64,000 nt of DNA from Patescibacteria group bacterium (GTDB lineage Bacteria; Patescibacteriota; Microgenomatia; Levybacterales; UBA12049): contig JBGTMH010000045.1 in assembly GCA_041743715.1 (NCBI GenBank), positions 18,092 through 82,091 on the forward strand. Direction: 5' to 3'. Below, one piece after another: positions 75-60,833 of this stretch. The translations under genes and the position numbers were made by a program. The stretch's first letter is position 1; each line of letters starts with the position of its first letter. The notes beneath the pieces are model-generated. The model did not search any database and was not told where the DNA came from. It worked only from the letters and a program-made list of their open reading frames with translations.

Positions 75-103
75 TTGACCCCTCGAACCTGAAGTTTTAT
101 AAT
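75..103 (+). promoter_or_regulatory. sigma70-type promoter TTGACC-17 nt-TATAAT upstream of the phosphoketolase gene
   Basis: TTGACC at 75-80, exactly 17-nt spacer, TATAAT at 98-103. The -10 box overlaps the first ATG (102), so the in-frame ATG at 117 is the more likely start. Confidence 0.55.
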
Positions 104-2879
104 GCAAGATACTGCTATGGATAAAGCGATTGAGAACATACGAAAATATGTCAGGGCTGCGAATTATCTTTCTGTTACGCAGATTTATCTTCAAGATAAC
201 TTTCTCTTGCATCGTGCTCTGAAACCAACGGACATCAAACCCAAACTTTTCGGTCACTGGGGGACGTGTCCGGGGATTAATTTTGTCTATGGACACCTGA
301 ACTATTTAGTCAAAAAGCATCAGCAGTCTACAATTTTTGTGTTGGGTCCCGGGCACGGGATGCCGGGGTTACAGGCAAATTTATTCCTTGAGGGAACGCT
401 CCAGAAATATTATCCGCAAGCGACACGAGACGCAAAAGGTATTGGGTATATCTCGAAGATGTTTGCCTGGCCATATGGATTCTCAAGTCACGCGACTCCT
501 GAGGCTCCGGGGACGATACTTGAGGGAGGAGAGTTGGGGTATTCTTTGGCATCTGCTTATGGGGCGATTCTTGATAATCCTGATTTACTAGCTGTTACGT
601 TGATCGGTGATGGGGAAGCTGAAACAGGTGCCATCGCTGCAGCGTGGCATATTAATAAATTGATTGATCCGGCAACCAATGGCGCAGTTTTGCCGATTCT
701 CCATGTTAATGGATATAAAATTTCAGGACCGACAATTTTTGGCCGGATGAGTAATAAAGAATTAGAAGACTTATTCAGCGGGTATGGATACGAGCCGTTT
801 TTTGTGGAAGGCGAAAATATTGATGTACAGATGTTCACGACACTGGAAAAATGTTACCAAACCATAAAAGGAATCCAATCGACTGCACGTGAGAATCCAA
901 ATGCTTATAAACCCCGCTTCCCGATGATTGTTATGCGGACACCAAAGGGGATGACGACTGTGAAAGAATTGCGGGGGATAAAGATTGAAGGCACGATACT
1001 TGCGCATCAAGTCGTTATGCCAACAGTCCGTGGCGATGATCAGGAATTACATGCTCTCGAGGAGTGGCTTCGTTCCTATCATTTCGAAGAATTATTTGAT
1101 ACGGAAAAAGGGTTTGAAGACGCGATCTTGGATGTCATTCCACAGGACAGCCTTCTTATTGGAGATAATCGTGACGTCTTGGGTGGAACATATAAACCAC
1201 TTGTGCTTCCTGAGACAAAAAAATTGGCCAAACCTGTTGCTATGCCTGGAAAAGTTCAATCAAATGCCCTGCGTATGTCAGGTACCTATTTGAAAGAAAT
1301 CTTTCGTCTCAATAGTGAACAAAAGAATTTCCGACTTATGTCTCCTGATGAAACCTATTCAAATCGTCTGGACGAAGTTTTCCAAGTAACATCTCGAGGA
1401 TGGGTTTGGCCACATGATCCACAAGATCGTGATATCACCAGAGACGGAAGAGTCATGGAAATCCTTTCAGAGCACAATATGCATGGGCTGGCGCAGGGGT
1501 ATGTGTTGACCGGACGCCATGCTGTTTTTACCACCTATGAAGCATTCGCCCAAATCTTCTCAAGCATGGCACATATGTATCAGAAGTTTCTCAAATACGT
1601 ACGCAAGATGCCATGGCGGGAGGATATTGCATCGATGAATTATTTGTTAACTTCAACGGCTTGGCGGCAAGAGCACAATGGGTATTCTCATCAAAATCCG
1701 AGCTTTGTCTCAGGTATGCTGGAAAAACACAATGACTTCATAAAAGCATATTTCCCAGTAGATGATAACAGCATGCTTGCAGTGATGGAAGAGACGATGT
1801 CCTCCAAAAATCAAATGAATATTATCACTGCTGGTAAAACACCTGAGCCCCGATGGTTGACATATGAGCAAGCGAAAGAAACGTTAAAGACCGGTCTTCT
1901 GACGTGGGATTTTGCGAGTGATGAAAATCCTCATGTGGTATTGGTCGGAATCGGGGACTATGTTACCAAAGAAGCGCTTGCAGCGGTTGAATTAATTAAA
2001 AAAGACGCACCTGAAATTCGAGTACGCTTTGTGAATATCGCCCGTCTGCAAGCAGCCTGTTCCTGCGTTGGAGAGTTTCATCCACAACTTCCTGATGCTG
2101 AACGCCATTTTACTGTAGACAAACCGGTCATTATTAATTTCCACGGGTATCCCGAAGTGATGCAAGCGATGCTGACACACGTGAAGAATCCTGGACGTTT
2201 CTCAGTTCATGGGTATGTAGAAGAAGGTGGGACAACGACGCCGTTTGATATGCAGGTGAGAAATAAAACAGACCGTTATCATCTGGCAATTGAAGTATTG
2301 TATATAATGGAAAAAAATGGAATAGTAACGAGTGAAAAAGCACAAGAATTACAAGAGCAGTACAAAAAAGCATTGAACGATCATTATTCATATGTTACCG
2401 AAAACGGTGCTGATCCTATAGAGATTGAACAATGGCAATGGGATGGCGTTGTACCTGAAACAAATGTCGCGAGGGGTGTTGATCACGAAACAGTATTAAA
2501 AAATGCCCGCACGATTGCTTTTGTGGGACTATCAGATAAGCCAGAGCGGCACAGTCACAAAGTTGCAAAATATTTCCAGAAGAAAGGATACCGAGTTATC
2601 CCCGTTAACCCGAAGTTACAGGAAGTACTGGGCGAAAAATCTTATGCCAGCATAACGGAAATTCCAGGAGATATTCATATAGACATCGTCGATATCTTCC
2701 GCAAACCAACCGAAGTCATCCCCCACATGCAAGAAATTGTCGAGCGGGGCAACATAAGAACAGTCTGGCTCGCTGACGGAGTCAATACACACGAAGCCGA
2801 AGATTTCGCCGAAGACTATGGCCTTTCTCTCGTGACTAACTACTGTATCCTCGATGCGTATAAGGATATGCAGAAGTAG
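102..2879 (+). CDS. xfp: Xylulose-5-P/fructose-6-P phosphoketolase fused to a C-terminal CoA-binding (YccU/CoA_binding_2-like) domain
   Basis: 925-aa ORF. N-terminal ~790 aa is typical XFP (RAANYLSVTQIYLQDN, GHWGTCPG, EGGELGYS, GDGEAETG). The last ~135 aa (ARTIAFVGLSDKPERHSHKVAKYFQKKGYRVIPVNP...) match the small CoA-binding protein family. Likely true start is ATG 117. Confidence 0.9.
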   Translation: MQDTAMDKAIENIRKYVRAANYLSVTQIYLQDNFLLHRALKPTDIKPKLFGHWGTCPGINFVYGHLNYLVKKHQQSTIFVLGPGHGMPGLQANLFLEGTLQKYYPQATRDAKGIGYISKMFAWPYGFSSHATPEAPGTILEGGELGYSLASAYGAILDNPDLLAVTLIGDGEAETGAIAAAWHINKLIDPATNGAVLPILHVNGYKISGPTIFGRMSNKELEDLFSGYGYEPFFVEGENIDVQMFTTLEKCYQTIKGIQSTARENPNAYKPRFPMIVMRTPKGMTTVKELRGIKIEGTILAHQVVMPTVRGDDQELHALEEWLRSYHFEELFDTEKGFEDAILDVIPQDSLLIGDNRDVLGGTYKPLVLPETKKLAKPVAMPGKVQSNALRMSGTYLKEIFRLNSEQKNFRLMSPDETYSNRLDEVFQVTSRGWVWPHDPQDRDITRDGRVMEILSEHNMHGLAQGYVLTGRHAVFTTYEAFAQIFSSMAHMYQKFLKYVRKMPWREDIASMNYLLTSTAWRQEHNGYSHQNPSFVSGMLEKHNDFIKAYFPVDDNSMLAVMEETMSSKNQMNIITAGKTPEPRWLTYEQAKETLKTGLLTWDFASDENPHVVLVGIGDYVTKEALAAVELIKKDAPEIRVRFVNIARLQAACSCVGEFHPQLPDAERHFTVDKPVIINFHGYPEVMQAMLTHVKNPGRFSVHGYVEEGGTTTPFDMQVRNKTDRYHLAIEVLYIMEKNGIVTSEKAQELQEQYKKALNDHYSYVTENGADPIEIEQWQWDGVVPETNVARGVDHETVLKNARTIAFVGLSDKPERHSHKVAKYFQKKGYRVIPVNPKLQEVLGEKSYASITEIPGDIHIDIVDIFRKPTEVIPHMQEIVERGNIRTVWLADGVNTHEAEDFAEDYGLSLVTNYCILDAYKDMQK

Positions 2880-2915
2880 AGCCTCAATTTTTATATTCAT
2901 GAACTTTTTTCTGTC

Positions 2916-2951
2916 TTGACTCGGGTACTTTGTACATGTAATATATGTACA
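2916..2951 (+). promoter_or_regulatory. Promoter TTGACT-17-TAATAT with overlapping inverted repeat TGTACAT/ATGTACA (candidate BrnA operator)
   Basis: TTGACT 2916-2921, 17-nt spacer, TAATAT 2939-2944. The 7-bp inverted repeat 2931-2937 / 2945-2951 straddles the -10 box. Confidence 0.5.
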
Positions 2952-3245
2952 GTGATTGATCTGAGGAAGATAATAGGATTTGAATGGGATGAAGGGAATT
3001 TTGATAAAAACTACAAAAAACACGGAATAACAACGAAGGAGGCAGAAGAGGTTTTTTTAGATGAGAAACAGTTAGTTTTAGAAGATGATAGGCATTCTCA
3101 AAAAGAAGAGCGATTTACCATGATCGCTAGGAGTACAAATAATAAAGTGCTTTTTATAGTATTTACGATGAGGGGAAATAGTATTCGAATTATTTCAGCA
3201 CGAAAAGCAAATAAGAAAGAGGTGAGGTTATATGAAGAAATTTAA
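2952..3245 (+). CDS. brnT: BrnT-family (DUF497) type II toxin
   Basis: FEWDEGNFDKNYKKHGITTKEAEEVF...IRIISARKANKKE is the BrnT/DUF497 pattern. The ORF-track start (TTG 2916) is the -35 box, so the start is taken as in-frame GTG 2952 (uncertain). Overlaps brnA by 14 nt. Confidence 0.75.
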   Translation: MIDLRKIIGFEWDEGNFDKNYKKHGITTKEAEEVFLDEKQLVLEDDRHSQKEERFTMIARSTNNKVLFIVFTMRGNSIRIISARKANKKEVRLYEEI

Positions 3246-3518: not shown

Positions 3519-4091
3519 TTAATGAGTGTTCTTATACCAGTCCGTTATTGCTGCTCGATGTTTGTAGGCGATATTCTGAGGGAGATTATCTGATGTAAAG
3601 TAGCGCAAATCGGTAAATTCACTACCCCGCGTGATAGGTCCACTAACTGTTCCAAAAAATATAATATCCAGATGCATTCCGCGAGGATCATCATCAATCA
3701 GATATGTTCCGATTATTCCTTCAATGATAATGTTTGTCCCAATTTCTTCTTGTGCTTCTCTTCGGACTGCGACTTCTGCCGTTTCTTCATAGCTGATAAA
3801 TCCACCCGGAAGCACCCAGTAATCCTTAAAGGGTTCATGTGCCCGCTTAAGCATGAGCACTTTTCCGTCTTGATGTAAGAGTATACTCACAACGGGTTTG
3901 GATTTATTCCAGAAAATAAAGTCACAATTTGTACAGGCTTTTACTTTTTCCCGGTCAATTTTTTTGGCAATAAGTGGTTTACAGCAGTGAGGGCAGAATT
4001 TGTAGAGATTATATTGGTTCGGTGGTGACGGCATACATTGATTATAACAGTCTTTCTTGTATTTTGATTCAATCGGGATTACAATATACAT
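3519..4091 (-). CDS. NUDIX hydrolase with N-terminal CxxC...CxxC zinc ribbon
   Basis: Nudix box GGFISYEETAEVAVRREAQEEIG. CPHCC...CTNC lies upstream of it. Start moved to ATG 4091 (MYIVIP...) because the longer ORF overlaps the divergent gene at 4095. Confidence 0.8.
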   Translation of the reverse strand: MYIVIPIESKYKKDCYNQCMPSPPNQYNLYKFCPHCCKPLIAKKIDREKVKACTNCDFIFWNKSKPVVSILLHQDGKVLMLKRAHEPFKDYWVLPGGFISYEETAEVAVRREAQEEIGTNIIIEGIIGTYLIDDDPRGMHLDIIFFGTVSGPITRGSEFTDLRYFTSDNLPQNIAYKHRAAITDWYKNTH

Positions 4092-6230: not shown

Positions 6231-7514
6231 TTAATAAGTATACTTATCAATAACCCTTGCCGCATCGGGATTTTGTCTTAACAGTTGAATCACTTCTGGA
6301 TGAACATACTCTGTGAGAGCCAGTGATGTTCTAATCACTTCTTTGAGTTGCGCTCTCCGGTGTCCTGTTAAACCGTCTAAACATTTTGGCAAATAATTAG
6401 GTGCTGTAGCAAGAATGGTAATTAAAGATGATGTCGCTTCATCGGGATTGCTAAAAGCATGTCCTCCAAAAATTTCATCTCTTGTGCCGAGTAATGTTTT
6501 CGTAGCTTTTCCATCCTTCAGACATGTAAACTCTTGGTCATTATTATAATATTGTTTGACTGCTACTGGAATGAGTGGTGTCGCCTCTTGATATATCGTG
6601 TAATTATCTAAAAGTTTTCCACGGACACCTTTAACATAATAAGGCACTTCAAATATACTTACTGCTTCGCAGCCTGGATTGGTGAAGGGGGCGTAGATTT
6701 CAGGTTGATCCTCGAGCATTGCTTGAGAAGTAAACTCCATGGCCTGTACATAATTAGTTACTCGGTCTATGCCGTATACTTGAATAACTTCTGGATCTTG
6801 CAACACAAGATTAAATCTTTTTGAGGTTTCTAGAAAAGCATCTGCAATTGCGTCTCTATTGTCTGATATGAAGTCGCGATAGAGTGAATCCCGTACAACT
6901 TTACAAGCATTTCTTACCCGATTTATTTTTTCAGTAAGTGTTTTATCTTCTGGTATGGTATTTGTTTCAAGGTATTGATTCCAATCCTGATTCAATCCGT
7001 GCGTTGCTTCGTGGATACCAGTAGTTTTAAATAGTCTTTTATTAAAATAAACACCTTGTTCAGTAGGCCCATAACCGTCACTAATAAAAAAGTTAACAGA
7101 TTTATCTCGTAGATTAAAGTTTCCGTTATCTTGAGCGCTTGGTAAAACCCTAATGCTTCTAATATTGCCTTTTTTTGCAGCAAGCTTGAAGAGTGGGTGA
7201 TTAATGGTTTCTAAAAATGCTTCTTTATAAGCTGTTGGTAGTATCTCTGCAAATTGCATATCGGCATACTCGCCATTTTCTACTGTGACTACTGCGGCAG
7301 GAGTAACGGGTTCATCGCCTTCGTACCACTTCCCTGTGATTGGGGGGAGTGCATTTTTTTCTTGAATGGGTGCTCTTTCAGCGTGGGTACCGGTTGATGG
7401 GAATTGCGGTGCTTGTGTTTCTGCTCTTGAGCATGCACTTGGAAGCAAAAATAAAGGTACTACAGCCGCTGCTGCAAGTCTCCTTCTTAGTCTTCGTGGA
7501 TTTTCTGGAGTCAT
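6231..7514 (-). CDS. Secreted protein / putative lipoprotein with HExxH metalloprotease-like motif
   Basis: Start taken at ATG 7514 (MTPENPRRLRRRLAAAAVVPLFLLPSAC...), giving a signal peptide with a lipobox-like SAC. It carries a single HEATH motif. No family recognised. Confidence 0.5.
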   Translation of the reverse strand: MTPENPRRLRRRLAAAAVVPLFLLPSACSRAETQAPQFPSTGTHAERAPIQEKNALPPITGKWYEGDEPVTPAAVVTVENGEYADMQFAEILPTAYKEAFLETINHPLFKLAAKKGNIRSIRVLPSAQDNGNFNLRDKSVNFFISDGYGPTEQGVYFNKRLFKTTGIHEATHGLNQDWNQYLETNTIPEDKTLTEKINRVRNACKVVRDSLYRDFISDNRDAIADAFLETSKRFNLVLQDPEVIQVYGIDRVTNYVQAMEFTSQAMLEDQPEIYAPFTNPGCEAVSIFEVPYYVKGVRGKLLDNYTIYQEATPLIPVAVKQYYNNDQEFTCLKDGKATKTLLGTRDEIFGGHAFSNPDEATSSLITILATAPNYLPKCLDGLTGHRRAQLKEVIRTSLALTEYVHPEVIQLLRQNPDAARVIDKYTY

Positions 7515-7575
7515 CGAGGAATTATAACTTATAGTATCGACTTGTGCAATCCAATGAGTTTGTATATATGACTCA

Positions 7576-8004
7576 CTATTTACGCATATAAAACTTCTTT
7601 TCCAAATAACATGCAACGCCTAATCTGCTTGCTTCATAATGCGGTTCGGTGAGTTTTCGAGGGTCACACCAGAACCATTCAGTAAGTTTCTCTGGTTCCA
7701 TCACTTTGGGTGTTCCAGAAAAAGTTTTTGCAAGAAGGATAATAGAAACTGAGTGTCTTCCTTCTTCATTGAACGTTTCTAAATTGTTGGTAATGCATAG
7801 GACTTTTGGACTCCTAATATCCAGATCAGTTTCTTCTTTTACTTCTCGTATTGCGGCTTCCTCAAAGGTTTCACCTAGTTCTAAAGAGCCCCCGACTATG
7901 GAGTATTTCGGTGCATGTGTACCAATTCGTTTGGCAATCAGGATATTTCCGTTCTTATTTTCAATAATGACACCGATGCCGACCAGGGGTCTTTTGCATA
8001 GCAT
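7576..8004 (-). CDS. NUDIX hydrolase (MutT-like)
   Basis: Nudix box GGSLELGETFEEAAIREVKEETDL. 142 aa. Confidence 0.8.
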   Translation of the reverse strand: MLCKRPLVGIGVIIENKNGNILIAKRIGTHAPKYSIVGGSLELGETFEEAAIREVKEETDLDIRSPKVLCITNNLETFNEEGRHSVSIILLAKTFSGTPKVMEPEKLTEWFWCDPRKLTEPHYEASRLGVACYLEKKFYMRK

Positions 8005-8024
8005 AGATCGATTATACCAAGAAA

Positions 8025-10166
8025 TTAATATTTGAAGATTTGGAAAAGGTTGCTGTAGTCATCTGTCCAGAGTTTTATGTCTGTTCTACTTGGCTTGTCC
8101 TTTTTTGCTTTGTTAAGTGCTGAGGTCGTAAGTAATGATTTATCAGCCGCGAGAAACGCCCATTTGGAACGTGACTGCATATCATTTGCAGGAGGCACAT
8201 CGATAAAAATAACATGCATCTTGTGATATTGCGCAGCTTTTTGGATGACAGGAATGAGATCAAGATAGGTATTTGAAATATGGACCGCGATAATACTCTC
8301 CTTTGCAAGATGTGCTTTATAGAGTGCAAATGCTTCTTTGGTCAGCAGATGTACGGGGATTGCGTCATCGTTAAATGCATCCACGATAAAGAGATGATAG
8401 TTCTGCTTGTTATTTTCTTTGAGTTCTTTTTCCATTGAAAGCCTTCCATCACCGACAACATTTGTCACTTTTGCAGGTGTGTTGGCAAGATAGGTAAAAT
8501 GTGTCTTTGCCAGTTCTACATCTAACGGATTTAATTCATAAAATTTGATAGTATCTCCCTCTTGTCCATATGCTGCGATTGTCCCAACACCCAGTCCGAT
8601 AACACCAATCTGTAGTGGAGTCGTTTTTTCGCGAACACTATCGACAGCAAGTCCGATACTCTTTTCTCCAAAATATGTTGTCGGTTTCATCTTTTGTGAC
8701 TCAGCCAAGGGTTGGCAACCATGGATAATTTTGCCATTGAGTAGGCATCGGGTATCGGTTTTTTCTTGCTGCATTATTCGGAGTGTACCGTAGGAATTTC
8801 TCCAAACGCCAACTGAATTATTTGTTTGTTCAAGAAATAAGGCTATGGAAATGATTCCAAAAAAGAAACTGACAACAGCGATAAGAAAGACGGTCATTTC
8901 TTTTTGGGACCGGAGACCAAAATCAAGTCGGCGGTACAGAAATGAATTTTTATACTTGATAAGCACAAGGACTGCAATAAGCGTTGTTAAAAATAACCCA
9001 AGCAAGAATTCCCAAAAGAGTCCAATAAAAAAAATCGGCGCGATAATCGCGACAATTAATGCTCCTACCACACTGCCGAAAGCCATTACTAAGTAAAAGG
9101 CATTTATGTCTTTTGTTGGGGGTCTCGTGGCAAAAAGTTCACCGTGACACACCATAAAACAGCTGAAAAGCATAATGGTATACAAAACAAGCTCGACAAA
9201 AATGCTCAGTGCAGGCGGCTGGGTCAGAAGGGCTAGGACTACAGGAATAGTCAGAAGAAAACAATACGCGTAGAGATTCCGTTTGTAAAAAGATCGCTCA
9301 CTAAAGCATAGGATAAAAGAAAGAAGATATAATCCGAGCGGCAGAAGCCAAAGAAACGGAATCGGGGCGATACCCTGTGTCAATTGATGTGTTCCAGCAA
9401 GAAGCATGAGTGATGAGACTGCGGGAAGAAAGAGCCAGAGTCTATACTGTGTCATCCCGACCGAGTCCGCAGACGAGTGGAGGGATCTTTTCAACTGTGC
9501 CGCTTGTGGTGAGAAGATTCCTCGACTCCTTTCAGTCGCTCGGAATGACAAATAAGTACAAAATACAAGTAATAAACATAAAATAATAAAAATAAGTGAC
9601 CAAATCTGTCCTTGGTTTTGTAATGAAAGAAAGGGTTCGATAAAAAAAGGATAACTAATAATTGCCAACAGGGAGCCCGCATTGGAAAGAGCATAGAGTG
9701 GATAAGGAGATTTTTTATGAGGAAGTACACTGAACCATTTTTGTAAAAGCGTGCTGGTTGTGGAGAGAAGAAAATATGGTAGCCCGACACTTATCAGTAA
9801 GATAGCAAGTACCTGGATTACCGGTGCGTATGTCTCAGGAAGTTTTAGTTCAACTCCTGGTGTAATAGGTGAGTTCCAATGTGAAAATAAAAGCACCGTA
9901 ATAATGACAATTGTCACAACTAATGTACTATGAAGCAAGAGCTGCTGTCTTAATGAGAATTTTGTGAGCAGATACGCGTACAAGTAACCCGCCAAAAGCA
10001 GGGTTTGAAAAAATAACAGTGAGGTTATCCAAACAAACGATGTTCCACCAAACCATGGAAGAATATATTTTCCGATGAGCGGTTGGACTTGGAAGAGCAG
10101 AAAAGCGCTGAGGAAGATGGTTACTGAAAAACTGATGAAGTAGAGAAGCGAATGGTTGTATTTCAT
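8025..10166 (-). CDS. Polytopic membrane domain fused to a spermidine-synthase-like (class I methyltransferase fold) domain
   Basis: 713 aa. About 450 aa of TM helices, then VIGLGVGTIAAYGQEGDTIKFYELNP...LFIVDAFNDDAIPVHLLTKEAF, a spermidine synthase family signature. Confidence 0.75.
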   Translation of the reverse strand: MKYNHSLLYFISFSVTIFLSAFLLFQVQPLIGKYILPWFGGTSFVWITSLLFFQTLLLAGYLYAYLLTKFSLRQQLLLHSTLVVTIVIITVLLFSHWNSPITPGVELKLPETYAPVIQVLAILLISVGLPYFLLSTTSTLLQKWFSVLPHKKSPYPLYALSNAGSLLAIISYPFFIEPFLSLQNQGQIWSLIFIILCLLLVFCTYLSFRATERSRGIFSPQAAQLKRSLHSSADSVGMTQYRLWLFLPAVSSLMLLAGTHQLTQGIAPIPFLWLLPLGLYLLSFILCFSERSFYKRNLYAYCFLLTIPVVLALLTQPPALSIFVELVLYTIMLFSCFMVCHGELFATRPPTKDINAFYLVMAFGSVVGALIVAIIAPIFFIGLFWEFLLGLFLTTLIAVLVLIKYKNSFLYRRLDFGLRSQKEMTVFLIAVVSFFFGIISIALFLEQTNNSVGVWRNSYGTLRIMQQEKTDTRCLLNGKIIHGCQPLAESQKMKPTTYFGEKSIGLAVDSVREKTTPLQIGVIGLGVGTIAAYGQEGDTIKFYELNPLDVELAKTHFTYLANTPAKVTNVVGDGRLSMEKELKENNKQNYHLFIVDAFNDDAIPVHLLTKEAFALYKAHLAKESIIAVHISNTYLDLIPVIQKAAQYHKMHVIFIDVPPANDMQSRSKWAFLAADKSLLTTSALNKAKKDKPSRTDIKLWTDDYSNLFQIFKY
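9451..9549. repeat. 99-bp nested palindromic element (GTCATCCCGACCGAG...GTCGCTCGGAATGAC) inside the coding sequence
   Basis: Outer arms 9451-9465 / 9535-9549 pair at 12 of 15 positions. Inner arms 9475-9492 / 9511-9528 pair at 15 of 18. 99 bp is 33 codons, read through as LSFRATERSRGIFSPQAAQLKRSLHSSADSVGMT between TM helices. Confidence 0.7.
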
Positions 10167-10175
10167 GTGGGTGCA

Positions 10176-10204
10176 TTGATTATAGCAGAGAAATTATCTA
10201 CAAT
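10176..10204 (+). promoter_or_regulatory. Promoter TTGATT-17-TACAAT for murB
   Basis: TTGATT 10176-10181, 17-nt spacer, TACAAT 10199-10204. The murB ATG lies 8 nt after the -10 box and there is no SD. Confidence 0.5.
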
Positions 10205-10212
10205 TAACTGCT

Positions 10213-11178
10213 ATGTTGATTCAACAAGACTTTTCGCTTTCAGAACGACTTTGGTATAAAATCGGCGGCAGGGCAAAATATTTTTTGACTGTTGAGAACA
10301 GGGACGACATCACAGAAGCGCTTGCCTTTGTCAAAAAACGTAAACCGAATCGTTTATTTATCTGTGGACTCGGATCTAACCTCATTTTTTCGGATGAGTA
10401 CTTTGATGGGGTTGTAATTCAAATTGTTTCAACAAAAAATCATTCTGTGCACGCTATAGAAGGGGGGAAAATTACTGTTTTTGCCGGGACTGTTCTTGAC
10501 GATGTCATTACGTTTTCTTTTAGTCATAACCTGACTGGACTTGAGTGGGCTGGTGGTTTGCCTGGTACAGTGGGTGCTGGGGTTCGTGGAAACGTGGGTG
10601 CTTATGGCGGAGAGATAAAAGATTCGCTCGTTACTGCTGAAGTGTTGGATTATTCGGGTGGCAACCTAGTTGTAAAAACGTTAACAAACGAGCAATTACA
10701 ATTTGTTTACAGGGGGAGTTTGATAAAGTCCCACAAAAAAATGGTGGTTATATCTGCAACGTTTGGACTCAAAAAAAGTTCGGAGGAGAAAATAGAAGAA
10801 GCACAAAAAGTTTACATGCACAACAAACAGTTACGAAAAGACAAACATCCTCTAGAGTATCCCAACTGTGGATCGGTATTTAAGAATTTAAGAAAGAAAG
10901 ATGAGATTGAAAAAGTTCTCTCAATCTATCCGGAGTTCAGAGAAAATGTTGAGAAGAAATGGTTTGGCAAAATTGCAGTGGCAAGTTTGATAGAACGGTT
11001 AGGATTAAAAGGATACCGGATAGGGGATGCACAAGTGTCAACTAAGCATGCACTTTTTATCGTCAATCTCGGTCACGCAAAAGCAAAAGATGTGTTGCAG
11101 ATCATTCAAGACATTCAGGAAAAATTTGAGAACGTCTTCGGATTTCAGTTGGAAGTTGAAGTTGAAATTGTAAAATAG
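10213..11178 (+). CDS. murB: UDP-N-acetylenolpyruvoylglucosamine reductase
   Basis: YKIGGRAKYF, GLGSNLIF, GLPGTVGAGVRGNVGAYG and NCGSVFKN are all MurB/FAD-binding PCMH signatures. Confidence 0.9.
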   Translation: MLIQQDFSLSERLWYKIGGRAKYFLTVENRDDITEALAFVKKRKPNRLFICGLGSNLIFSDEYFDGVVIQIVSTKNHSVHAIEGGKITVFAGTVLDDVITFSFSHNLTGLEWAGGLPGTVGAGVRGNVGAYGGEIKDSLVTAEVLDYSGGNLVVKTLTNEQLQFVYRGSLIKSHKKMVVISATFGLKKSSEEKIEEAQKVYMHNKQLRKDKHPLEYPNCGSVFKNLRKKDEIEKVLSIYPEFRENVEKKWFGKIAVASLIERLGLKGYRIGDAQVSTKHALFIVNLGHAKAKDVLQIIQDIQEKFENVFGFQLEVEVEIVK

Positions 11179-11190
11179 TTCTGTTACAAT
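11162..11190 (+). promoter_or_regulatory. Promoter TTGAAA-17-TACAAT overlapping the murB stop, driving the lysine-operon leader
   Basis: TTGAAA 11162-11167, 17-nt spacer, TACAAT 11185-11190. Confidence 0.5.
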
Positions 11191-11202
11191 GCATTTATAT
11201 CT

Positions 11203-11253
11203 ATGAAATCTGTTACCTTAATTTCAAAAAAGTCAAAGAAGCCTCTCGCCTGA
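11203..11253 (+). CDS. Candidate regulatory leader peptide MKSVTLISKKSKKPLA (5 Lys in 16 codons)
   Basis: ATG 11203 lies 12 nt after the -10 box. Lys codons sit at 11206-11208 and in a KKSKK cluster at 11227-11241. The stop TGA 11251-11253 overlaps the 5' arm of the antiterminator stem. Confidence 0.45.
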   Translation: MKSVTLISKKSKKPLA

Positions 11254-11288
11254 GGGACTCTCTTTGTGGAAAAGAAAGAGCGCCCCTC
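11252..11288 (+). promoter_or_regulatory. Antiterminator hairpin of the lysine-operon leader
   Basis: 11252-11265 (GAGGGACTCTCTTT) pairs with 11275-11288 (AAAGAGCGCCCCTC), giving 12 Watson-Crick pairs and 2 mismatches with a 9-nt loop. It consumes CCCCTC (11283-11288), which the terminator needs. Confidence 0.5.
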
Positions 11289-11304
11289 AAATGAGGGGTT
11301 TTTT
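11283..11304 (+). terminator. Intrinsic terminator CCCCTC-AAAT-GAGGGG-TTTTTT
   Basis: 6-bp GC-rich stem 11283-11288 / 11293-11298, a 4-nt loop, and a run of six T at 11299-11304. It lies 30 nt upstream of the lysA start, whose SD is AAAGGA. Confidence 0.65.
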
Positions 11305-11333
11305 AGTGGAAAAATTTAGAGAAAGGAAATATT

Positions 11334-17936: not shown

Positions 17937-17976
17937 ATGTATAGTACTTGTCATAAGAAAAGGATACAATAAGAAT

Positions 17977-20214: not shown

Positions 20215-20257
20215 TATGCGTCTTTACTCTTTATGCAAATAATGTTACCATTTCTGC

Positions 20258-21686: not shown

Positions 21687-22035
21687 GCTTCTGACGGTTT
21701 TTCCCTTTAGCAAAAACTAAATACAATTCATAGAATGCCTTGATAAATGGTAATGTCCGCATAGCTAAAAAAAAGTCATCGTCCTGGCCAGTATCATTTT
21801 GTCTTCGGTTATTAAGCACGTGCTGGTAAATAGCATAGATAACAACTAAGAGTGCTAATGGCACTAAGGTTATACTTGGATTTCCCCTTGTCGTTTCAGA
21901 CCCAAAAATGGCCAATACGAGAAAACCAACCAGAAAAGCAAGAATGATGAATGAAAAGGCACCAATGAGAGAGCCGAGTATATATTGACTCCGGTTAGTT
22001 TTGCCTTTATATATTTTCTTAAACCAATGAAGCAT
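21664..22035 (-). CDS. Small membrane protein, DUF805-like
   Basis: 123 aa with 3 TM segments. KGKTNRSQY and NNRRQNDTGQ resemble the DUF805 G-R-x-R-x-x-Y / RRLHDxG motifs. Weak call. Confidence 0.4.
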   Translation of the reverse strand: MLHWFKKIYKGKTNRSQYILGSLIGAFSFIILAFLVGFLVLAIFGSETTRGNPSITLVPLALLVVIYAIYQHVLNNRRQNDTGQDDDFFLAMRTLPFIKAFYELYLVFAKGKNRQKPTEKSHQ

Positions 22036-22106: not shown

Positions 22107-22127
22107 GAAATGTACCCATTGTACTCC

Positions 22128-45675: not shown

Positions 45676-45692
45676 CTGATTATAATAATTTT

Positions 45693-46064
45693 ATGGGAAG
45701 TATTGTTGAGCTAAATGACACACTACAGATAACAAAAGAGCAAGGGTTTCCTCAAGATCTTGATCTTGAAAAGCATTTAAAAAATCCATTAAAAGCAGAA
45801 GATTTTGCTGGTATTGAGTTTGAATTTCACAGCAAACCTAAGATTAGAAATTATCAGGCATCACCTATACGTAACTTCTTAGTCGAAAATAGAGGTGGAA
45901 AATGGATTTATTGGGGATTAGTTCATATTACGGAGGTACAGTTAGATTATAAAAACAATACAACTTCAGGAAAATTTAAAATAGAGTACCTTTATAATCC
46001 TAATGAAATGAAGAAGGCACATGAACTTATCGATAGAAATCCAGACACTAATTACTTCAACTAA
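45693..46064 (+). CDS. Hypothetical protein
   Basis: 123-aa ORF starting 17 nt after the Clp-like stop. No family recognised. Confidence 0.55.
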   Translation: MGSIVELNDTLQITKEQGFPQDLDLEKHLKNPLKAEDFAGIEFEFHSKPKIRNYQASPIRNFLVENRGGKWIYWGLVHITEVQLDYKNNTTSGKFKIEYLYNPNEMKKAHELIDRNPDTNYFN

Positions 46065-46282: not shown

Positions 46283-46311
46283 TTGACAACAATCTCAAAA
46301 CTATATAAAAT
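46283..46311 (+). promoter_or_regulatory. Promoter TTGACA-17-TAAAAT
   Basis: TTGACA 46283-46288, 17-nt spacer, TAAAAT 46306-46311. ATG 46320 follows after 8 nt with no SD. Confidence 0.5.
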
Positions 46312-46319
46312 GGCACTAT

Positions 46320-46550
46320 ATGAAGAAAATGAATGTTTCAACAAATCAGATGGAGAAATTTGCAGGCATGTGGGTGGCGATTGATCATCAAAACGACAAG
46401 ATTATTGCCGCTGGAGATACCTTTGAAGAAATTGCTCCCTTAGTAAGTGGAAAAATAAAAGATAAAAATAAAATTAAGGCTTCTGCGTTTAAGGTACCAA
46501 CAAAAGACGAAGGTTATCTCATCTTGACCACGTTACATGAGAGCATTTAA
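46320..46550 (+). CDS. Small DUF5678-like protein
   Basis: 76 aa. FAGMWVAIDHQNDKIIAAGDTFEEI resembles the DUF5678 core as I remember it. Overlaps the downstream protease gene by 14 nt. Confidence 0.5.
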   Translation: MKKMNVSTNQMEKFAGMWVAIDHQNDKIIAAGDTFEEIAPLVSGKIKDKNKIKASAFKVPTKDEGYLILTTLHESI

Positions 46551-47948: not shown

Positions 47949-48026
47949 TGAATAATTGCATGTAACTACACGCTATTTTTTCCTTCCTGCATTGTAATTT
48001 ACCACCAGACTCCATATACTTAATAT

Positions 48027-48668
48027 ATGTCCCGAACTCGTTTCGGGCTATTAGTAATGGAAACAAAAGATACGAAACAAGATCCAAAATTAGGCGCAAA
48101 ACCTGAAACAAAAATGCAAATACCAAATAAGTTTTTGGCATTTTTCTCGAACTTTAAAAAGGGGCCTAATGTGGATCCCAAAGCAGGCGCGAAGCCTGAG
48201 AAAAAATTTCAAATTCAAAATATCTCTTCAGCGCTTCCCTTGATTCTCTCGAAATTGAAGAAAGAAACCAAACAGGATCCGAAAGTGGGCGCAAATCAAC
48301 AGCCAAAAACAGACGCGAAGCCTGGAGTACCGTTTCGGATACCCAAATACTTAGTACTTCCCCTAATGTTCTTGAAATTTTGGTTTTATGAAAGTCCTGT
48401 GGGGATATATAAGTTTTTTGCATCGCTTAACAATGCATTTTTCCAGCTTTTTTCGTTGCCACTTCTTGTCAAGACATACTTTAAGCCGCTTAAAAATGAA
48501 TATCGACAAGGACTGGTCGGATTTTCTATTGGAATGGGTATGTTCGTCAAAACCTTTTTTATCATTGCGGATGTTATTATGTTGGTATTATTACTCCTTT
48601 TTGAAGTTACCGTGCTTGTCTCATTTGTTTTTTTGCCAATTGCGACATTTTGGTTGCTTTTTTTGTAA
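48027..48668 (+). CDS. Membrane protein with three N-terminal DPKxGAKP repeats
   Basis: Repeats TKQDPKLGAKPETKMQIPN / NVDPKAGAKPEKKFQIQN / TKQDPKVGANQQPKTDAKPGVPFRIPK, then ~3 TM helices. The real start may be ATG 48057 (METKD...), because 48032-48048 forms a CCCGAA/TTCGGG hairpin. Confidence 0.55.
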   Translation: MSRTRFGLLVMETKDTKQDPKLGAKPETKMQIPNKFLAFFSNFKKGPNVDPKAGAKPEKKFQIQNISSALPLILSKLKKETKQDPKVGANQQPKTDAKPGVPFRIPKYLVLPLMFLKFWFYESPVGIYKFFASLNNAFFQLFSLPLLVKTYFKPLKNEYRQGLVGFSIGMGMFVKTFFIIADVIMLVLLLLFEVTVLVSFVFLPIATFWLLFL

Positions 48669-55732: not shown

Positions 55733-55761
55733 TTGAAGGTTACCCTTGTATCTGGTATACT
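55733..55761 (+). promoter_or_regulatory. Promoter TTGAAG-17-TATACT for nusA
   Basis: TTGAAG 55733-55738, 17-nt spacer, TATACT 55756-55761. ATG 55769 lies 7 nt after the -10 box. Confidence 0.5.
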
Positions 55762-55768
55762 AAGCCTT

Positions 55769-56887
55769 ATGCCAGCTATACAACGGAGTGAATTTGCATT
55801 AGCTTTAAATCAAGTCGCCTCAGAGCGTGGGGTTGATGTGGACGTGGTGCTCGATACCGTACAAAATGCGATTTTGGCAGCGTATCGGAAAGATCATCCA
55901 GGTGTTGAGGTGGAAGATTATCGTGCAGTACTTGATCCCAACACAGGGGAAGCCAAGATTTATCAAGAAGATAAAGATGTGACTCCTCCTGGATTTGGAC
56001 GGATTGCCGCACAAACTGCTAAGCAAGTCATACTTCAGAAAATTCGTGAGAAAGAAAAAGAAGCGATTTTTACTGATTATCGGATAAAAATCGGTACCAT
56101 AGTGAATGGTATGGTGCTCCGTTTTGCCGGTCCAAATATTATTATCGATATAGGAAAAGCAGAAGCAATTATGCCGGTCTCCGAACAAATCCCCAATGAA
56201 AAATATCATCTGAATCAGCGGCTCGTTTTTTATCTTTCAGAAATCCGCCAAGGAATGAAAGGCGAAGAAATTGTCGTGTCACGTGCTGACATAGGACTTC
56301 TTGAGGGGTTATTTAAGAGGGAAGTTCCGGAAGTTGCTCAGGGAAGTGTTGAGATCAAAGCAATTGTTCGGGAGCCAGGTAATAGAGCAAAAATAGCTGT
56401 GTTCTCAACGCAGCCGGGAATTGATCCTGTAGGTTCTTGTGTCGGACAAAAAGGGGTTCGTGTTCAAGCAATCATTCAAGAGTTGGGTGGTCTTGAAAAA
56501 ATTGATATTATTCAGTGGTCTGATGACACAAAGACTTACATAGCCCAAGCGCTCTCTCCCGCAAAGAATGTCCAGGTAGAAATTGATGAAGAAGCAAAAG
56601 AAGCTCGTGTGTTTGTCCCACAAGAGGAACTATCGTTAGCCATTGGAAAAGAAGGACAGAACGTTCGCCTTGCCTACAAATTGACACAATACAGAATCGA
56701 AATTGAAGGAAAAGCCCCACTTGGTGGATTAGATAGTGAAGACACAGATGAAGTAGTAGAGGATACAGCCACGAAAGAAGGAGAAGAAAAAAAAGAAGAT
56801 AAGGTAGAAAAAAAGACTAAGGCGAAAGAATCAAGCAAAAAAGAAGTTAAAGAGAAAAAAGAAAAAGAAAACAAAGATGAAAAATAA
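55769..56887 (+). CDS. nusA: Transcription termination/antitermination factor NusA
   Basis: EFALALNQVASERGVDVDVVLDTVQNAILAAY N-terminal domain, S1 and two KH regions (GSCVGQKGVRVQ, AIGKEGQNVRLA), and a K/E-rich tail. The ORF-track TTG 55727 lies upstream of the promoter -10, so ATG 55769 is used. Confidence 0.9.
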   Translation: MPAIQRSEFALALNQVASERGVDVDVVLDTVQNAILAAYRKDHPGVEVEDYRAVLDPNTGEAKIYQEDKDVTPPGFGRIAAQTAKQVILQKIREKEKEAIFTDYRIKIGTIVNGMVLRFAGPNIIIDIGKAEAIMPVSEQIPNEKYHLNQRLVFYLSEIRQGMKGEEIVVSRADIGLLEGLFKREVPEVAQGSVEIKAIVREPGNRAKIAVFSTQPGIDPVGSCVGQKGVRVQAIIQELGGLEKIDIIQWSDDTKTYIAQALSPAKNVQVEIDEEAKEARVFVPQEELSLAIGKEGQNVRLAYKLTQYRIEIEGKAPLGGLDSEDTDEVVEDTATKEGEEKKEDKVEKKTKAKESSKKEVKEKKEKENKDEK

Positions 56888-58603: not shown

Positions 58604-59656
58604 ATGGATAAAACAACATTACAGAAATTAAAAGATGCGATCGCTAAAAGCAATAACATCGGTATTGCAGTAGGGCGAGAGCCAACTATTGATGAAATGG
58701 GAGCGGGTCTTGCTCTCTATCTTCTGCTTAAAAATGCTAATAAAAAGGTGAGCATTGCGAGTCCCACTGATCCTATTGTTGAAATTTCCTCACTAGTCGG
58801 TATTGATCGGGTTCAGCGGCAATTTGGCGGAGACGCAGGAGATTTGGTTGTTTCATTTCCTTATGAAGAAGGAGAAATTGAAAAAGTGTCATATACTCTT
58901 GAAAATAATTTTCTCAATATTATCGTTAAAGCTTCAGAACAAGGACTTTCTTTTAATGAAAAAGATGTTAAGTACACACGTGGAAGTGGCACTATCGACC
59001 TGCTGATTGCCGTAGGTGCAGCCAATCTTTCTGACTTAGGTGAGGTTTTTGATGAACAAAAACTTTCAAACGTGACTGTCATTAATATTGATATTAAGCA
59101 AAACAACCAAGGGTTTGGTGACATTGTATTAATTTCGCCCCAAGCATCATCAGTCTGTGAACATGTCGGAGATATTGCGTTAACACTTGGTTTCTCGCTT
59201 GAACAGGATGCATCGCAAAATCTTTTAAGTGGCATTATGTCAGCTACCAAGAACTTCCAAGATCCAAAAACGAGCTCACTCGCTTTTGAAATTGCTTCCT
59301 TTCTTATGAAGCACGGCGCACGCCGAGTAAGTACACAATCTCAACCCGGGCCACGAATGCAACAAGGTAATCAGCAACAGCAACCAAAGCCACGATATTC
59401 TGATGAACCACAGCAAAAAAGAGAAGAAAGACGTCCTGAAGATCGTCAACCAAGACCTGATGATAACAATCAGGTGAACCAGCCCAGAATACCACAACCC
59501 CGACCTATGAATACTGCACCACGACAGCAGGAATCTGTACCAGCTCCCAGACAGTCACAACCACAACCGCAACCAAAAAATGAGGATCAAGCAGATGACG
59601 CACCTCCACTCGATTGGTTAACACCAAAAGTCTACAAAGGATCCTCTGAGGTATAA
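58604..59656 (+). CDS. DHH/DHHA1-fold (NrnA-like) protein with degenerate catalytic motifs and a Q/P-rich tail
   Basis: The overall pattern matches NrnA. However, motif I is GREPTIDEMGAG where H..PDGDA.GS is expected, and the DHH position reads IDIKQN. The C-terminal ~110 aa are Q/P/R-rich. Confidence 0.6.
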   Translation: MDKTTLQKLKDAIAKSNNIGIAVGREPTIDEMGAGLALYLLLKNANKKVSIASPTDPIVEISSLVGIDRVQRQFGGDAGDLVVSFPYEEGEIEKVSYTLENNFLNIIVKASEQGLSFNEKDVKYTRGSGTIDLLIAVGAANLSDLGEVFDEQKLSNVTVINIDIKQNNQGFGDIVLISPQASSVCEHVGDIALTLGFSLEQDASQNLLSGIMSATKNFQDPKTSSLAFEIASFLMKHGARRVSTQSQPGPRMQQGNQQQQPKPRYSDEPQQKREERRPEDRQPRPDDNNQVNQPRIPQPRPMNTAPRQQESVPAPRQSQPQPQPKNEDQADDAPPLDWLTPKVYKGSSEV

Positions 59657-59670
59657 AATTTCAAAAAGCT

Positions 59671-60456
59671 ATGGCTGAAAGAAGAAGAACTGATCAAAGG
59701 ATTTCGCATCAACTGGAAAGACATCTAAGGGAAATAAGCTGGGGCGGATTACAAACATGTACTCCTCAAGAATTATTAGAAGTAACCACACATAAAGGAA
59801 GAAGGAGAGAACCGTTAGTGGTAGAGGACAGAAACCAATTAGTTGCTGCAGTAACAGGAGAACTTCGTCCGGGCGTCTATATAGAAATGGGTACAGGTAA
59901 TAATTCTTATGCTTTTACTACAAGGCGTACATTTACTCCACAAAGTCCTTATATAGGGATGGGAGTTACCTATGATAGTAAAAGCCATCATCCATCATGG
60001 AATGTTAATGTAGATTTACAGGGAAGGAGCGAAAATATTATAACCGGAGAAGCGCAAGAGGTTTTTATGGGTAACGTATCGTTTTCCTCAAAAGATTTAG
60101 GACCTCTTTTGCATTTGGAATTGCTTCAGGAAGCAAAAAGATTTCTTGATCCTGACACAGGCATACTGGTTCTCGCTATAAATGATACTTTCTCTCCACC
60201 TCAGCGCTTCGGAACGCTAGGGTTTCTATTGGAACACGCGGGCTTTGGGAGACGCATGTATCTTGATAATAGCGATCCCTCTTTCGATCAAGTTCAAGAA
60301 ACTTTTGGTTGGTATGGCGATGAAAATACTATGGAGGGAACTGGTATACTTGATCCAAACTGCCAATACATCATCGCTCAACAGGGATCTTTATCTGGAG
60401 AAAGAAGTAGTCGTTTTCCTAGAGGACTAATTAGCAGCTGGACGAGCCGAGGCTAG
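59671..60456 (+). CDS. Hypothetical protein (possibly a degenerate Rossmann/methyltransferase-like fold)
   Basis: 261-aa ORF. VYIEMGTGNN and GILVLAIND loosely resemble SAM-MTase motifs I and IV. No confident family. Confidence 0.4.
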   Translation: MAERRRTDQRISHQLERHLREISWGGLQTCTPQELLEVTTHKGRRREPLVVEDRNQLVAAVTGELRPGVYIEMGTGNNSYAFTTRRTFTPQSPYIGMGVTYDSKSHHPSWNVNVDLQGRSENIITGEAQEVFMGNVSFSSKDLGPLLHLELLQEAKRFLDPDTGILVLAINDTFSPPQRFGTLGFLLEHAGFGRRMYLDNSDPSFDQVQETFGWYGDENTMEGTGILDPNCQYIIAQQGSLSGERSSRFPRGLISSWTSRG

Positions 60457-60524
60457 TGCATACTAATTTTATATATAAGGGAAGTTATTTTTAAACATTA
60501 CATAATCGCTAAAAAATTACTAAC

Positions 60525-60553
60525 TTGTTCTGAATCTAGGGAAATGGTATAAT
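60525..60553 (+). promoter_or_regulatory. Promoter TTGTTC-17-TATAAT with TGn extended -10, for rpsO
   Basis: TTGTTC 60525-60530, TGG 60545-60547, TATAAT 60548-60553. ATG 60564 follows after 10 nt with no SD. Confidence 0.55.
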
Positions 60554-60563
60554 ACAATCTGTT

Positions 60564-60833
60564 ATGCCGTTATCAACGACTCAGAAACAAGAAATTATTA
60601 ATGAATTCCAGACAGCAAAAGGGGATACTGGGAGCCCAGAGGTGCAGATTGCGCTTCTTTCAAATAGAATCCAACGTCTTGCTGAGCATTTGAAAGCTCA
60701 CGCACATGATGTCCACAGTAGACGCGGACTTCTCTCGATGATTGCAAAACGTCGAAGACTCATCAACTTCCTCAAAAAGGTTGACGATAAAAGAGTCTCT
60801 GGTATACTTAAGAAGATCGGATTAAAAGACTAA
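60564..60833 (+). CDS. rpsO: 30S ribosomal protein S15
   Basis: GDTGSPEVQIALLSNRIQRLAEHLKAHAHDVHSRRGLLSMIAKRRRL. 89 aa. Confidence 0.95.
   Translation: MPLSTTQKQEIINEFQTAKGDTGSPEVQIALLSNRIQRLAEHLKAHAHDVHSRRGLLSMIAKRRRLINFLKKVDDKRVSGILKKIGLKD

Follow-up and report, generated by a model that had tools for sequence, protein, structure and literature searches.

Leaderless-type expression is often viewed as an ancestral or streamlined mode of gene expression. In bacteria, a leaderless architecture was shown experimentally for Mycobacterium tuberculosis (PMC3898074), for Deinococcus deserti by differential RNA sequencing (dRNA-seq; PMC4007540) and for Deinococcus radiodurans, including a requirement for the spacing (PMC12340547). 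GeneMarkS-2 defines a group C of genomes, in which the first gene of an operon has a Pribnow box at 6-8 nt and ribosome binding sites (RBS) are used elsewhere; the frequency of this group is 90% in Actinobacteria and 97% in Deinococcus-Thermus and it is rare in Proteobacteria and Firmicutes (PMC6028130). Here, we analyze a stretch of 64,000 nt (the window) from an uncultured, ultra-small Patescibacteria group bacterium of the order Levybacterales (GenBank assembly GCA_041743715.1, contig JBGTMH010000045.1, positions 18,092 to 82,091), i.e., from a lineage of the candidate phyla radiation (CPR). In this window and in related loci, many transcription units of the Levybacteria probably begin with a sigma-70-type promoter that abuts the start codon, which would result in leaderless-type mRNAs.

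Data set and definitions

The window was compared with 80 related loci from a NusA scan of GTDB representative genomes (67-91% identity), of which those with informative names are Candidatus Levybacteria/Levyibacteriota, Microgenomates or Patescibacteria. Window and relatives form a pooled set of 1.38 Mb, for which a simple gene set based on open reading frames (ORFs) was built with starts set by a first-ATG rule (1039 genes in 297 families). A strict -10 box was defined as TAnnnT with at least 5 of 6 matches to TATAAT and the gap as the number of nucleotides that separate the box from the start codon. The negative-control set consists of 80 unrelated metagenome loci with a GC content of 27-68% from a LysA scan, the matches of which are homologues with 57-66% identity from unrelated lineages; it was analyzed with the same scripts. 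The genes xfp, murB and brnT, the DUF5678 gene and the lys leader are described from the window alone. The window has a GC content of about 40%. Pfam searches confirm the gene names, i.e., xfp, brnT, murB, a lysA-aminotransferase-lysC-dapB-dapA-asd cluster, a class I lysS, hrcA-grpE-dnaK, dnaJ, nusA, infB, rpsO and pnp.

Position of -10 boxes relative to start codons

The original prediction was that promoters in the window lie so close to the first usable start codon that almost no 5' untranslated region (UTR) and no Shine-Dalgarno (SD) site is left. The -35, -10 and start coordinates of the eight genes named for this were all exact on re-check, with gaps of 13 nt for xfp, 7 nt for brnT (GTG start), 8 nt for murB, 12 nt for an ORF in the leader of the lys operon, 8 nt for the DUF5678 gene, 7 nt for nusA, 10 nt for rpsO and 12 nt for dnaJ. 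This list was incomplete: gaps of 6-8 nt are found at 4034(-), 7514(-), 8004(-), 17977 (lysS), 20258, 38127, 45693 and 48027, eight canonical 6-nt cases absent from it, in addition to 2952 (brnT, GTG), 10213 (murB), 22035(-), 46320 and 55769 (nusA). Gaps of 10-13 nt, with predicted leaders of 3-7 nt, are found at 117 (xfp), 10166(-), 11203 (lys leader ORF), 37143 (dnaJ), 60564 (rpsO) and 59671.

The hexamers on their own do not stand out from the background, as a generic promoter-pattern scan of positions 1-20000 yielded 47 matches compared to 49 +/- 7.3 in shuffles and thus no enrichment. The evidence therefore rests on position and not on the hexamers. With curated starts, 12 of 53 window genes carry a strict -10 box at 6-11 nt compared to 3.0% of all 2151 ATGs (binomial P = 4e-8), and 16 of 53 carry one at 6-13 nt compared to 3.7% (binomial P = 5e-11); automatic first-ATG starts give 10 of 51 (P = 2e-6). 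The distribution of distances from the -10 box to the start, suggested earlier as a check and run here on the pooled loci, places a strict box at 6-11 nt in 281 of 1024 genes (27%), while the control rate is 1.6% at in-frame and 2.6% at out-of-frame internal ATGs. In 92 of 295 protein families at least half of the members show this arrangement. The family-weighted gap histogram has its maximum at 6 nt (6: 44, 7: 15, 8: 18, 9: 13.5, 10: 6, 11: 9) and is nearly empty at 4-5 nt, as would be expected if transcripts did not include an ATG that lies before +1. A motif-anchored analysis starts from 674 matches of at least 10/12 to TTGACA-N16-18-TATAAT in the pooled set: ATGs that open ORFs of at least 80 codons cluster at offsets of 6-10 nt past the -10 box (19, 23, 18, 16 and 16 cases, respectively), with mostly 0-6 ATGs and isolated values up to 10 at other offsets. 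Among the unrelated bacteria of the control set, the arrangement is found at 2-10%.

TATAAT-like hexamers close to start codons might be a functionless product of chance in AT-rich intergenic DNA (about 40% GC), an explanation that agrees with the loose promoter scan being equal to the shuffles and with many matches of 8-9/12 inside genes. The positional and conservation statistics exclude it and it is already refuted, its remaining probability being negligible: the enrichment at starts exceeds 10-fold and sets in sharply at exactly 6 nt, a -35 TTG and an extended TG co-occur with the box, the window alone reaches the P value of 4e-8, and both boxes of the nusA promoter are kept in 67 of 78 relatives while the spacer is variable.

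Promoter elements and gene context

In the clade, an extended -10 TG accompanies 36% of the start-adjacent boxes compared to 6% of identical hexamers inside genes, and a -35 TTG accompanies 40% compared to 6%. Aligned on the -10 box, the start-adjacent hexamers have T, T and G at -35 to -33 in 59, 52 and 39% and T and G at -15/-14 in 55 and 49%. The sites are of the sigma-70 type, as those of the window score 9-11/12 and both TTG and TGn are enriched in the clade. Bases 7, 8 and 9 past the box are A in 63%, T in 62% and G in 48%, with a pyrimidine before them in 63%. Bacterial transcription start sites were reported to centre 7 bp after the -10 box on a pyrimidine-purine-pyrimidine (Y-R-Y) start element (PMC12641261). 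A/T/G at these bases after a pyrimidine matches this element, and an ATG preceded by T or C is itself such an element. Base -1 of the start codons in the pooled loci is T in 52-56% and G in 5-8% of all genes, with or without an abutting promoter; possible reasons for the T at -1 are the Y-R start element, an extended interaction with the initiator tRNA, or both.

The same motif could be understood as an A/U-rich non-SD binding site for the ribosome or for ribosomal protein S1, located on leadered mRNAs about 10 nt before the start, instead of as a promoter. An SD-poor clade needs some other translation signal, A/U biases at -20 to -10 were ascribed to Pribnow boxes or S1 sites (PMC5397173) and the T at -1 is common to all gene classes. 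However, a translation signal has no need for TTG 17 nt further upstream or for TG at -15/-14, and it would be expected also at overlapping and internal genes, where the motif has a frequency of 0%. Furthermore, motif-less genes show no A/T pattern at fixed positions, and in Deinococcus the same motif was shown experimentally to be a -10 element (PMC12340547). We regard a translation signal as very improbable and a promoter as the better description.

The gene context supports a promoter. A start-adjacent -10 box is found in 0 of 80 overlapping genes, at 38-66% of genes behind same-strand gaps of 11-80 nt (family-weighted) and at 37-39% of divergent genes. The absence at overlaps and the high frequency at gaps of 11-80 nt suggest that compact promoters fill the short intergenic spacers of a streamlined genome. 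By these context frequencies the -10 signal is concentrated at first genes, as it is in group C.

The start-adjacent promoters could still be minor or conditional, with the main expression originating from polycistronic transcripts that are translated without SD via coupling or unstructured start regions. Several promoters are indeed located inside or 11-25 nt behind a same-strand gene (45693, 17977), and 177 of 295 families show neither an abutting promoter nor an SD site, so SD-independent internal initiation exists. It is nevertheless hard to reconcile with minor promoters that near-consensus boxes are strongly conserved (nusA, dnaJ), that the dnaJ promoters of relatives directly follow terminator hairpins and that the motif is carried by 37-39% of divergent genes, which no read-through from upstream can reach. 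We give this possibility very little weight.

Conservation of nusA, rpsO and dnaJ promoters

The nusA promoter (55733..55771, + strand) consists of TTGAAG (55733-55738), a 17-nt spacer and TGgTATACT (hexamer 55756-55761), followed after 7 nt by ATG 55769. In 67 of 78 relatives a -10 box is found 6-12 nt before the ATG, and all 67 have the extended TG and the -35 TTG. The upstream columns are conserved to more than 90% at TTGA and TGGTATACT and to 30-40% in the spacer and past the -10 box; conserved boxes with a variable spacer constitute a promoter footprint. The longest ORF begins at TTG 55727, which lies upstream of the -35 box, and it had been suspected that this start is misplaced. ATG 55769 is indeed the start, based on the N-terminus MPAIQRS, which is invariant in all 80 relatives, on the promoter footprint and on an in-frame stop at most 20 codons upstream in 61 of 78 loci. 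The gap is 9-10 nt in most relatives; a conserved A-Y-T precedes the ATG there and points to a leader of 3 nt. In three loci (L053, L056 and L064) nusA lacks an adjoining promoter and its ATG instead follows the end of a terminator-like hairpin by about 5-10 nt. In four others (L014, L051, L055 and L059) CCTCCT is located about 8 nt upstream of nusA; this is the anti-SD sequence itself and not an SD.

The rpsO promoter (60525..60566, + strand) is composed of TTGTTC, a 17-nt spacer and TGgTATAAT (hexamer 60548-60553) 10 nt before ATG 60564, with a predicted leader of about 3 nt. In 38 of 66 relatives TGnTATAAT is found 5-10 nt before the ATG; in 23 of 66 the distance is 20-60 nt, and the leader is AT-rich, repeat-like and SD-less. 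This longer form may represent an S15 autoregulatory element that the clade has gained or lost internally. For dnaJ (37122..37145, + strand), the extended -10 element TGgTATAAT (37122-37130) precedes ATG 37143 by 12 nt. In most relatives a terminator hairpin is followed by TATAAT, 6-11 nt and the ATG of dnaJ, while in a few AAGGAG stands in place of the abutting promoter, so that one gene switches between two modes. The hypothetical gene with ATG 38127 (38112..38129, + strand) has TGcTAGTGT (hexamer 38115-38120) at 6 nt; in its family TGnTAnnnT with 6 nt is kept in 3 of 4 relatives, and several further hypothetical families conserve the same arrangement.

If the promoters were real and several start codons were misassigned, with the true start downstream or another promoter upstream, the mRNAs would have ordinary leaders. 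Some genes give reason for this concern, namely the ambiguous start of the PEGA gene, the N-terminus of metG, which in relatives aligns with the second Met 11 codons downstream, the 12-13 nt gaps of xfp, dnaJ and the lys leader outside the main peak and the 23 of 66 relatives with the distant rpsO promoter. As a general explanation it is improbable, as in nusA, rpsO, dnaJ and other families protein conservation begins at the assigned ATG while the upstream DNA is divergent, the 61 of 78 nusA loci have their in-frame stop close upstream, and the pile-up at 6 nt would vanish if starts were generally misplaced. The promoters abutting start codons, with predicted 5' UTRs of about 0-7 nt and without SD, are thus real, non-random and conserved across the clade according to the statistics of position, context and conservation.

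Shine-Dalgarno sites and leadered genes

A second part of the original prediction was that operon-internal genes carry SD sites and that initiation is divided into two regimes. The SD sites named for it are present, i.e., AAAGGA (11322-11327) for lysA, AGGAGA (34150-34155) for dnaK and AGGAAG (32807-32812) for hrcA, with duplex energies of -5.9, -7.4 and -4.2 kcal/mol, respectively, calculated against the canonical anti-SD ACCUCCUUU, which is assumed and may not be the organism's own. Only dnaK is operon-internal, with its SD (34150..34164, + strand) 6 nt before ATG 34162, whereas lysA and hrcA are first cistrons with leaders. About half of the relatives share the SD of dnaK, and that of hrcA is not conserved. 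As the SD frequency of the clade is also barely above the control, SD sites at operon-internal genes are not supported as a rule. Rfam and tRNA scans of the 64-kb window gave no match, hence no rRNA and no L-box riboswitch, and the 16S 3' region, sought in the 80 loci exactly and with 2 mismatches, was not found. In the literature, loss of the anti-SD is described only for a Parcubacteria subgroup (PMC9297842).

Of the 53 window genes, 11 reach a threshold of -4.5 kcal/mol for an SD-like duplex, four of them in the lys operon. At the same threshold, 14% of the clade genes have an SD (family-weighted) compared to 11% in a shifted window and 20% at internal ATGs, and genes at most 25 nt behind the previous gene have an SD in 23% compared to 16-20% in the control. 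The sole class with a real enrichment of strong SDs are non-leaderless genes that are far from the previous gene or divergent, with 12% compared to 3% at -6 kcal/mol. In the same pipeline, the unrelated bacteria show SD sites in 36-39% compared to 13-25%, an about 3-fold enrichment; the SD poverty of the clade is therefore not an artefact of start calling. Among leaderless-type genes, an SD 4-mer is present in 6 of 281, and 7% reach the -4.5 kcal/mol duplex compared to 10% in the control. Counts of SD 4-mers against internal-ATG controls were judged unreliable since the coding strand is purine-rich, and for this reason they were replaced by duplex energies with shifted-window and external controls.

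Instead of two clean regimes at least three classes are found: leaderless-type genes (about 27-31% in the clade), an SD minority (about 10-15%, only slightly more than background) and, as the majority, genes that lack both signals. A k-mer analysis of the clade found no alternative upstream motif. The pooled set contains 39 ATGA stop/start overlaps, and the class with neither signal probably uses coupling or unstructured A/T-rich start regions.

Both leadered first cistrons have candidate regulatory features. The lys-operon promoter (11162..11205, + strand) is formed by TTGAAA, a 17-nt spacer and TGtTACAAT (hexamer 11185-11190), 12 nt before ATG 11203 of the leader ORF 11203-11253 (16 codons, 5 Lys), which encodes MKSVTLISKKSKKPLA up to its stop codon. 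It is followed by the intrinsic terminator GCCCCTCAAATGAGGGG with T6 (11282-11304) and by the SD of lysA 6 nt before ATG 11334 (terminator and SD 11282..11327, + strand), so that lysA comes first in the operon, after a leader of about 140 nt that includes the terminator. In the minimum-energy fold of 11203-11304 (z = -3.35), the two arms of the terminator have other partners: the 5' arm is paired with CUGAGGG around the stop codon, and the 3' arm together with the U-tract is paired with the region of the Lys codons. This looks like a candidate lysine-sensing, ribosome-mediated attenuator in place of an L-box riboswitch. A Lys-rich leader was sought upstream of the LysA homologues from the metagenome scan and none was found, but these homologues are from unrelated lineages.

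For hrcA (32760..32817, + strand), TTGACA (32760-32765), a 17-nt spacer and TATATT (32783-32788) are followed by 26 nt to ATG 32815. The gene is a first cistron, and its leader of about 20 nt carries a CIRCE-like operator. The CIRCE-like repeat TTGGCACTC-N9-TATTGCTAA (32770-32796) lies between the -35 box and the start site; it is present at the same site in L017, L034, L057, L063 and L074 as TTAGCAGTC-N9-ACTGCTAA, and the right arm is degenerate in the window. A promoter for a T4SS-pilin ORF (GTG 32776, TAATAT 32784-32789) was rejected, as its sequence only mirrors the -10/CIRCE region of hrcA and the ORF would contain the hrcA -35 box.

Proposed mode of initiation

In the proposed mechanism, the promoter would consist of a -35 TTGnnn, a spacer of about 17 nt, often an extended TGn and a -10 TAnnnT ending 6 nt before the start codon, with a tail to about 12 nt. 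RNA polymerase would start about 7 nt past the -10 box at a pyrimidine-purine step, by which the A of a T/C-preceded ATG would become the preferred start point. The mRNA would begin at the AUG or 1-7 nt before it, with no room for an SD, and translation would proceed by direct recognition of the 5'-proximal AUG (leaderless initiation of the 70S/initiation factor 2 (IF2) type) in analogy to other bacteria. Downstream operon genes and first genes with long regulated leaders (lysA, hrcA) would use an SD in a minority of cases and mostly no recognisable signal, and the ATGA stop/start overlaps may allow coupling or reinitiation. Where transcription actually starts and how ribosomes are recruited is inferred from what is observed directly, i.e., the position of the motif, the co-occurring promoter elements, the dependence on gene context, the conservation and the depletion of SD.

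Several points weigh against this mechanism. Every 5' end is predicted from sequence. The gaps of xfp, the lys leader and dnaJ (12-13 nt), of rpsO (10 nt) and of nusA in most relatives (9-10 nt) would with normal start-site choice lead to leaders of 3-7 nt, and the ribosomes of this clade may not treat such messages as leaderless. A number of promoters are located within upstream genes, where read-through transcripts may be more important. The first-ATG rule of the pooled analysis biases the start-codon statistics and may blur both signals. Finally, all 80 loci are centred on nusA, hence their families are not a random sample of the genomes, a problem that family weighting lessens but does not remove. 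Taken together, the leaderless part of the interpretation is very likely, while the claim that internal genes carry SD sites was overstated.

Comparison with described leaderless architectures

Judged by its promoter positions, the layout of the window and the clade is the group C leaderless architecture as defined by GeneMarkS-2, here seen in a CPR lineage. As in group C (M. tuberculosis, Actinobacteria), it would concern about 25-50% of operons, the respective genes have no SD, and promoter and RBS motifs fall in the same distance range. Unlike the high-GC Actinobacteria of group C, the Levybacteria are a low-GC lineage; they show a full sigma-70 consensus with a frequent -35 TTG and an extended TG instead of a bare TANNNT, and their gap distribution is broader with a tail to 10-12 nt, while the complementary SD class is very weak. 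In Deinococcus-Thermus, TANNNT likewise adjoins the ORF at about 30% of ORFs and too short a spacing is not tolerated, which compares to the empty 4-5 nt bins here. Deinococcus transcripts were found to start at or very near the AUG by reporters and dRNA-seq (PMC12340547, PMC4007540), whereas here this is deduced from promoter position and conservation, and Deinococcus keeps a clear GGAG RBS motif at other genes whereas the SD of Levybacteria is weak.

A survey of leaderless genes (Zheng et al., 2011; PMC3160421) and a survey of non-SD genes (PMC5397173) described a similar -10-like signal about 10 nt upstream and came to the same evolutionary reading. The clade also resembles group B (Bacteroidetes, Cyanobacteria; PMC5397173) in that most genes have no recognisable SD and the anti-SD is presumably retained. 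It differs from group B, as there one non-SD motif is located upstream of all genes including internal ones, whereas here no motif is found at overlapping or internal genes and promoter features are present. Full-text searches found no literature linking "leaderless" with CPR, Patescibacteria, Saccharibacteria, Microgenomates, Parcubacteria or Levybacteria, a result that does not extend to the genome list of PMC3160421, and the word "candidate" is absent from PMC5397173. Overall, the architecture is a known one, with the unusually weak SD component as its sole departure.

This extends abundant leaderless-type expression to the CPR and suggests that SD pairing is of very little importance to these bacteria, whose ribosomes are reduced. 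Whether the Levybacteria, and perhaps the Microgenomates or the CPR, represent a third major lineage with predominantly leaderless, SD-independent expression after Actinobacteria and Deinococcus-Thermus, with about one gene in 3-4 leaderless and SD near nil, is in our view evenly balanced. If true, this could be linked to the reduced CPR ribosomes, standard gene callers would systematically misplace CPR starts, and the spacers of 11-80 nt in the streamlined genome would be occupied by compact promoters. The predictions are simple enough for testing with metatranscriptome 5' ends, and the conserved promoter/start arrangement TTGnnn-N17-TGnTATAAT-N6-ATG offers a design for expression tools in Patescibacteria.

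Start codons and further promoters in the window

Start calling based on SD sites or on the longest ORF will misplace starts in these genomes, as had been anticipated; in the window this concerns nusA, xfp and brnT and probably two more genes, with shifts from 4202 to 4034 and from TTG 7616 to ATG 7514. Of the three genes for which the longest-ORF start was thought to lie inside or upstream of the promoter, nusA is confirmed by MPAIQRS, xfp is supported and the PEGA gene remains ambiguous. The xfp promoter (75..119, + strand) has TTGACC (75-80), a 17-nt spacer and TATAAT (98-103), followed after 13 nt by ATG 117, with a predicted leader of about 6 nt and no SD. Since the longer-ORF ATG 102 overlaps TATAAT, the promoter layout supports 117 rather than 102 as start; the Pfam XFP_N match begins at residue 7 of the long form. 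The phosphoketolase encoded by xfp (117-2879) is fused to a C-terminal CoA_binding_2 domain and has 925 aa in its long form. For the PEGA gene (22078..22130, + strand) with the candidate ATGs 22110 and 22128, either TTGTCT, a 17-nt spacer and TGaTAAGAT (ending at 22106) form the promoter, in which case ATG 22110 would be ruled out and ATG 22128 would have a leader of about 14 nt, or TATGAT is used 8 nt before ATG 22110.

The brnT promoter (2916..2954, + strand) comprises TTGACT (2916-2921), a 17-nt spacer and TAATAT (2939-2944), 7 nt before GTG 2952, and this start is supported because TTG 2916, with which the longest ORF begins, is the -35 box. The brnT -10 box is overlapped by TGTACAT-N7-ATGTACA (2931-2951), a perfect inverted repeat that is probably the autoregulatory operator. 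A BrnA-like ORF of 87 aa (3232-3495) overlaps the end of brnT by 14 nt. The NUDIX gene at 4032..4068 (- strand) has the extended -10 element TGtTATAAT (hexamer 4041-4046) 6 nt before ATG 4034; its NUDIX domain begins at residue 103 of the long form with the longest-ORF start 4202, and 4034 is probably the start. A hypothetical gene (7512..7548, - strand) with TGCACA, a 16-nt spacer and TATAAT (7521-7526) 6 nt before ATG 7514 probably starts there rather than at TTG 7616, where its longest ORF begins. A second NUDIX gene (8002..8038, - strand) carries TGgTATAAT (hexamer 8011-8016) as extended -10 element 6 nt before ATG 8004.

The murB promoter (10176..10215, + strand), with TTGATT (10176-10181), a 17-nt spacer and TACAAT (10199-10204) 8 nt before ATG 10213, is arranged back-to-back with that of a hypothetical gene of 713 aa (10164..10207, - strand), in which TGcTATAAT (hexamer 10179-10184) precedes ATG 10166 by 12 nt and predicts a leader of about 6 nt. 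For lysS (17965..17979, + strand), TACAAT (17965-17970) is located 6 nt before ATG 17977 with no good -35 box, and AAAGGA lies 12 nt upstream of the ATG, hence its class is ambiguous. The inositol monophosphatase gene (20223..20260, + strand) has TTTACT, a 17-nt spacer and TGtTACCAT (hexamer 20246-20251) 6 nt before ATG 20258, and the DUF805 gene (22033..22072, - strand) has TTGACT (22067-22072), a 17-nt spacer and TATACT (22044-22049) 8 nt before ATG 22035. At 45681..45695 (+ strand), TATAAT (45681-45686) is found 6 nt before ATG 45693 of a hypothetical gene, the promoter lying inside the 3' end of the preceding clpB-like gene. The DUF5678 gene (46283..46322, + strand) is preceded by TTGACA (46283-46288), a 17-nt spacer and TAAAAT (46306-46311), 8 nt before ATG 46320. 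A further hypothetical gene (47992..48029, + strand) has TTGTAA, a 17-nt spacer and TATACT (48015-48020) 6 nt before ATG 48027, and a weaker case (59631..59673, + strand) has TCTACA, a 17-nt spacer and TAAAAT (59654-59659) 11 nt before ATG 59671 of a hypothetical gene.

The metG gene of the window (29562-31031, - strand) has 11 extra N-terminal codons compared to its relatives, which start with M(S/N/G)K(Y/F)YL. The metG family (five members) was scored as 60% leaderless-type; in the window, the closest box of the -10 type is TATAAC, without the conserved T at its end, TGgTACAAT is found 43 nt upstream, and start and leader of this gene are uncertain. Further proteins of the window have an unusual domain composition: the class I lysyl-tRNA synthetase (17977-20214, 745 aa) is fused to a B3_4 domain, IF2 (57028-58512) has only 494 aa and no N-terminal region, and the ClpB-like protein (41377-45675) has 1432 aa with long extensions.

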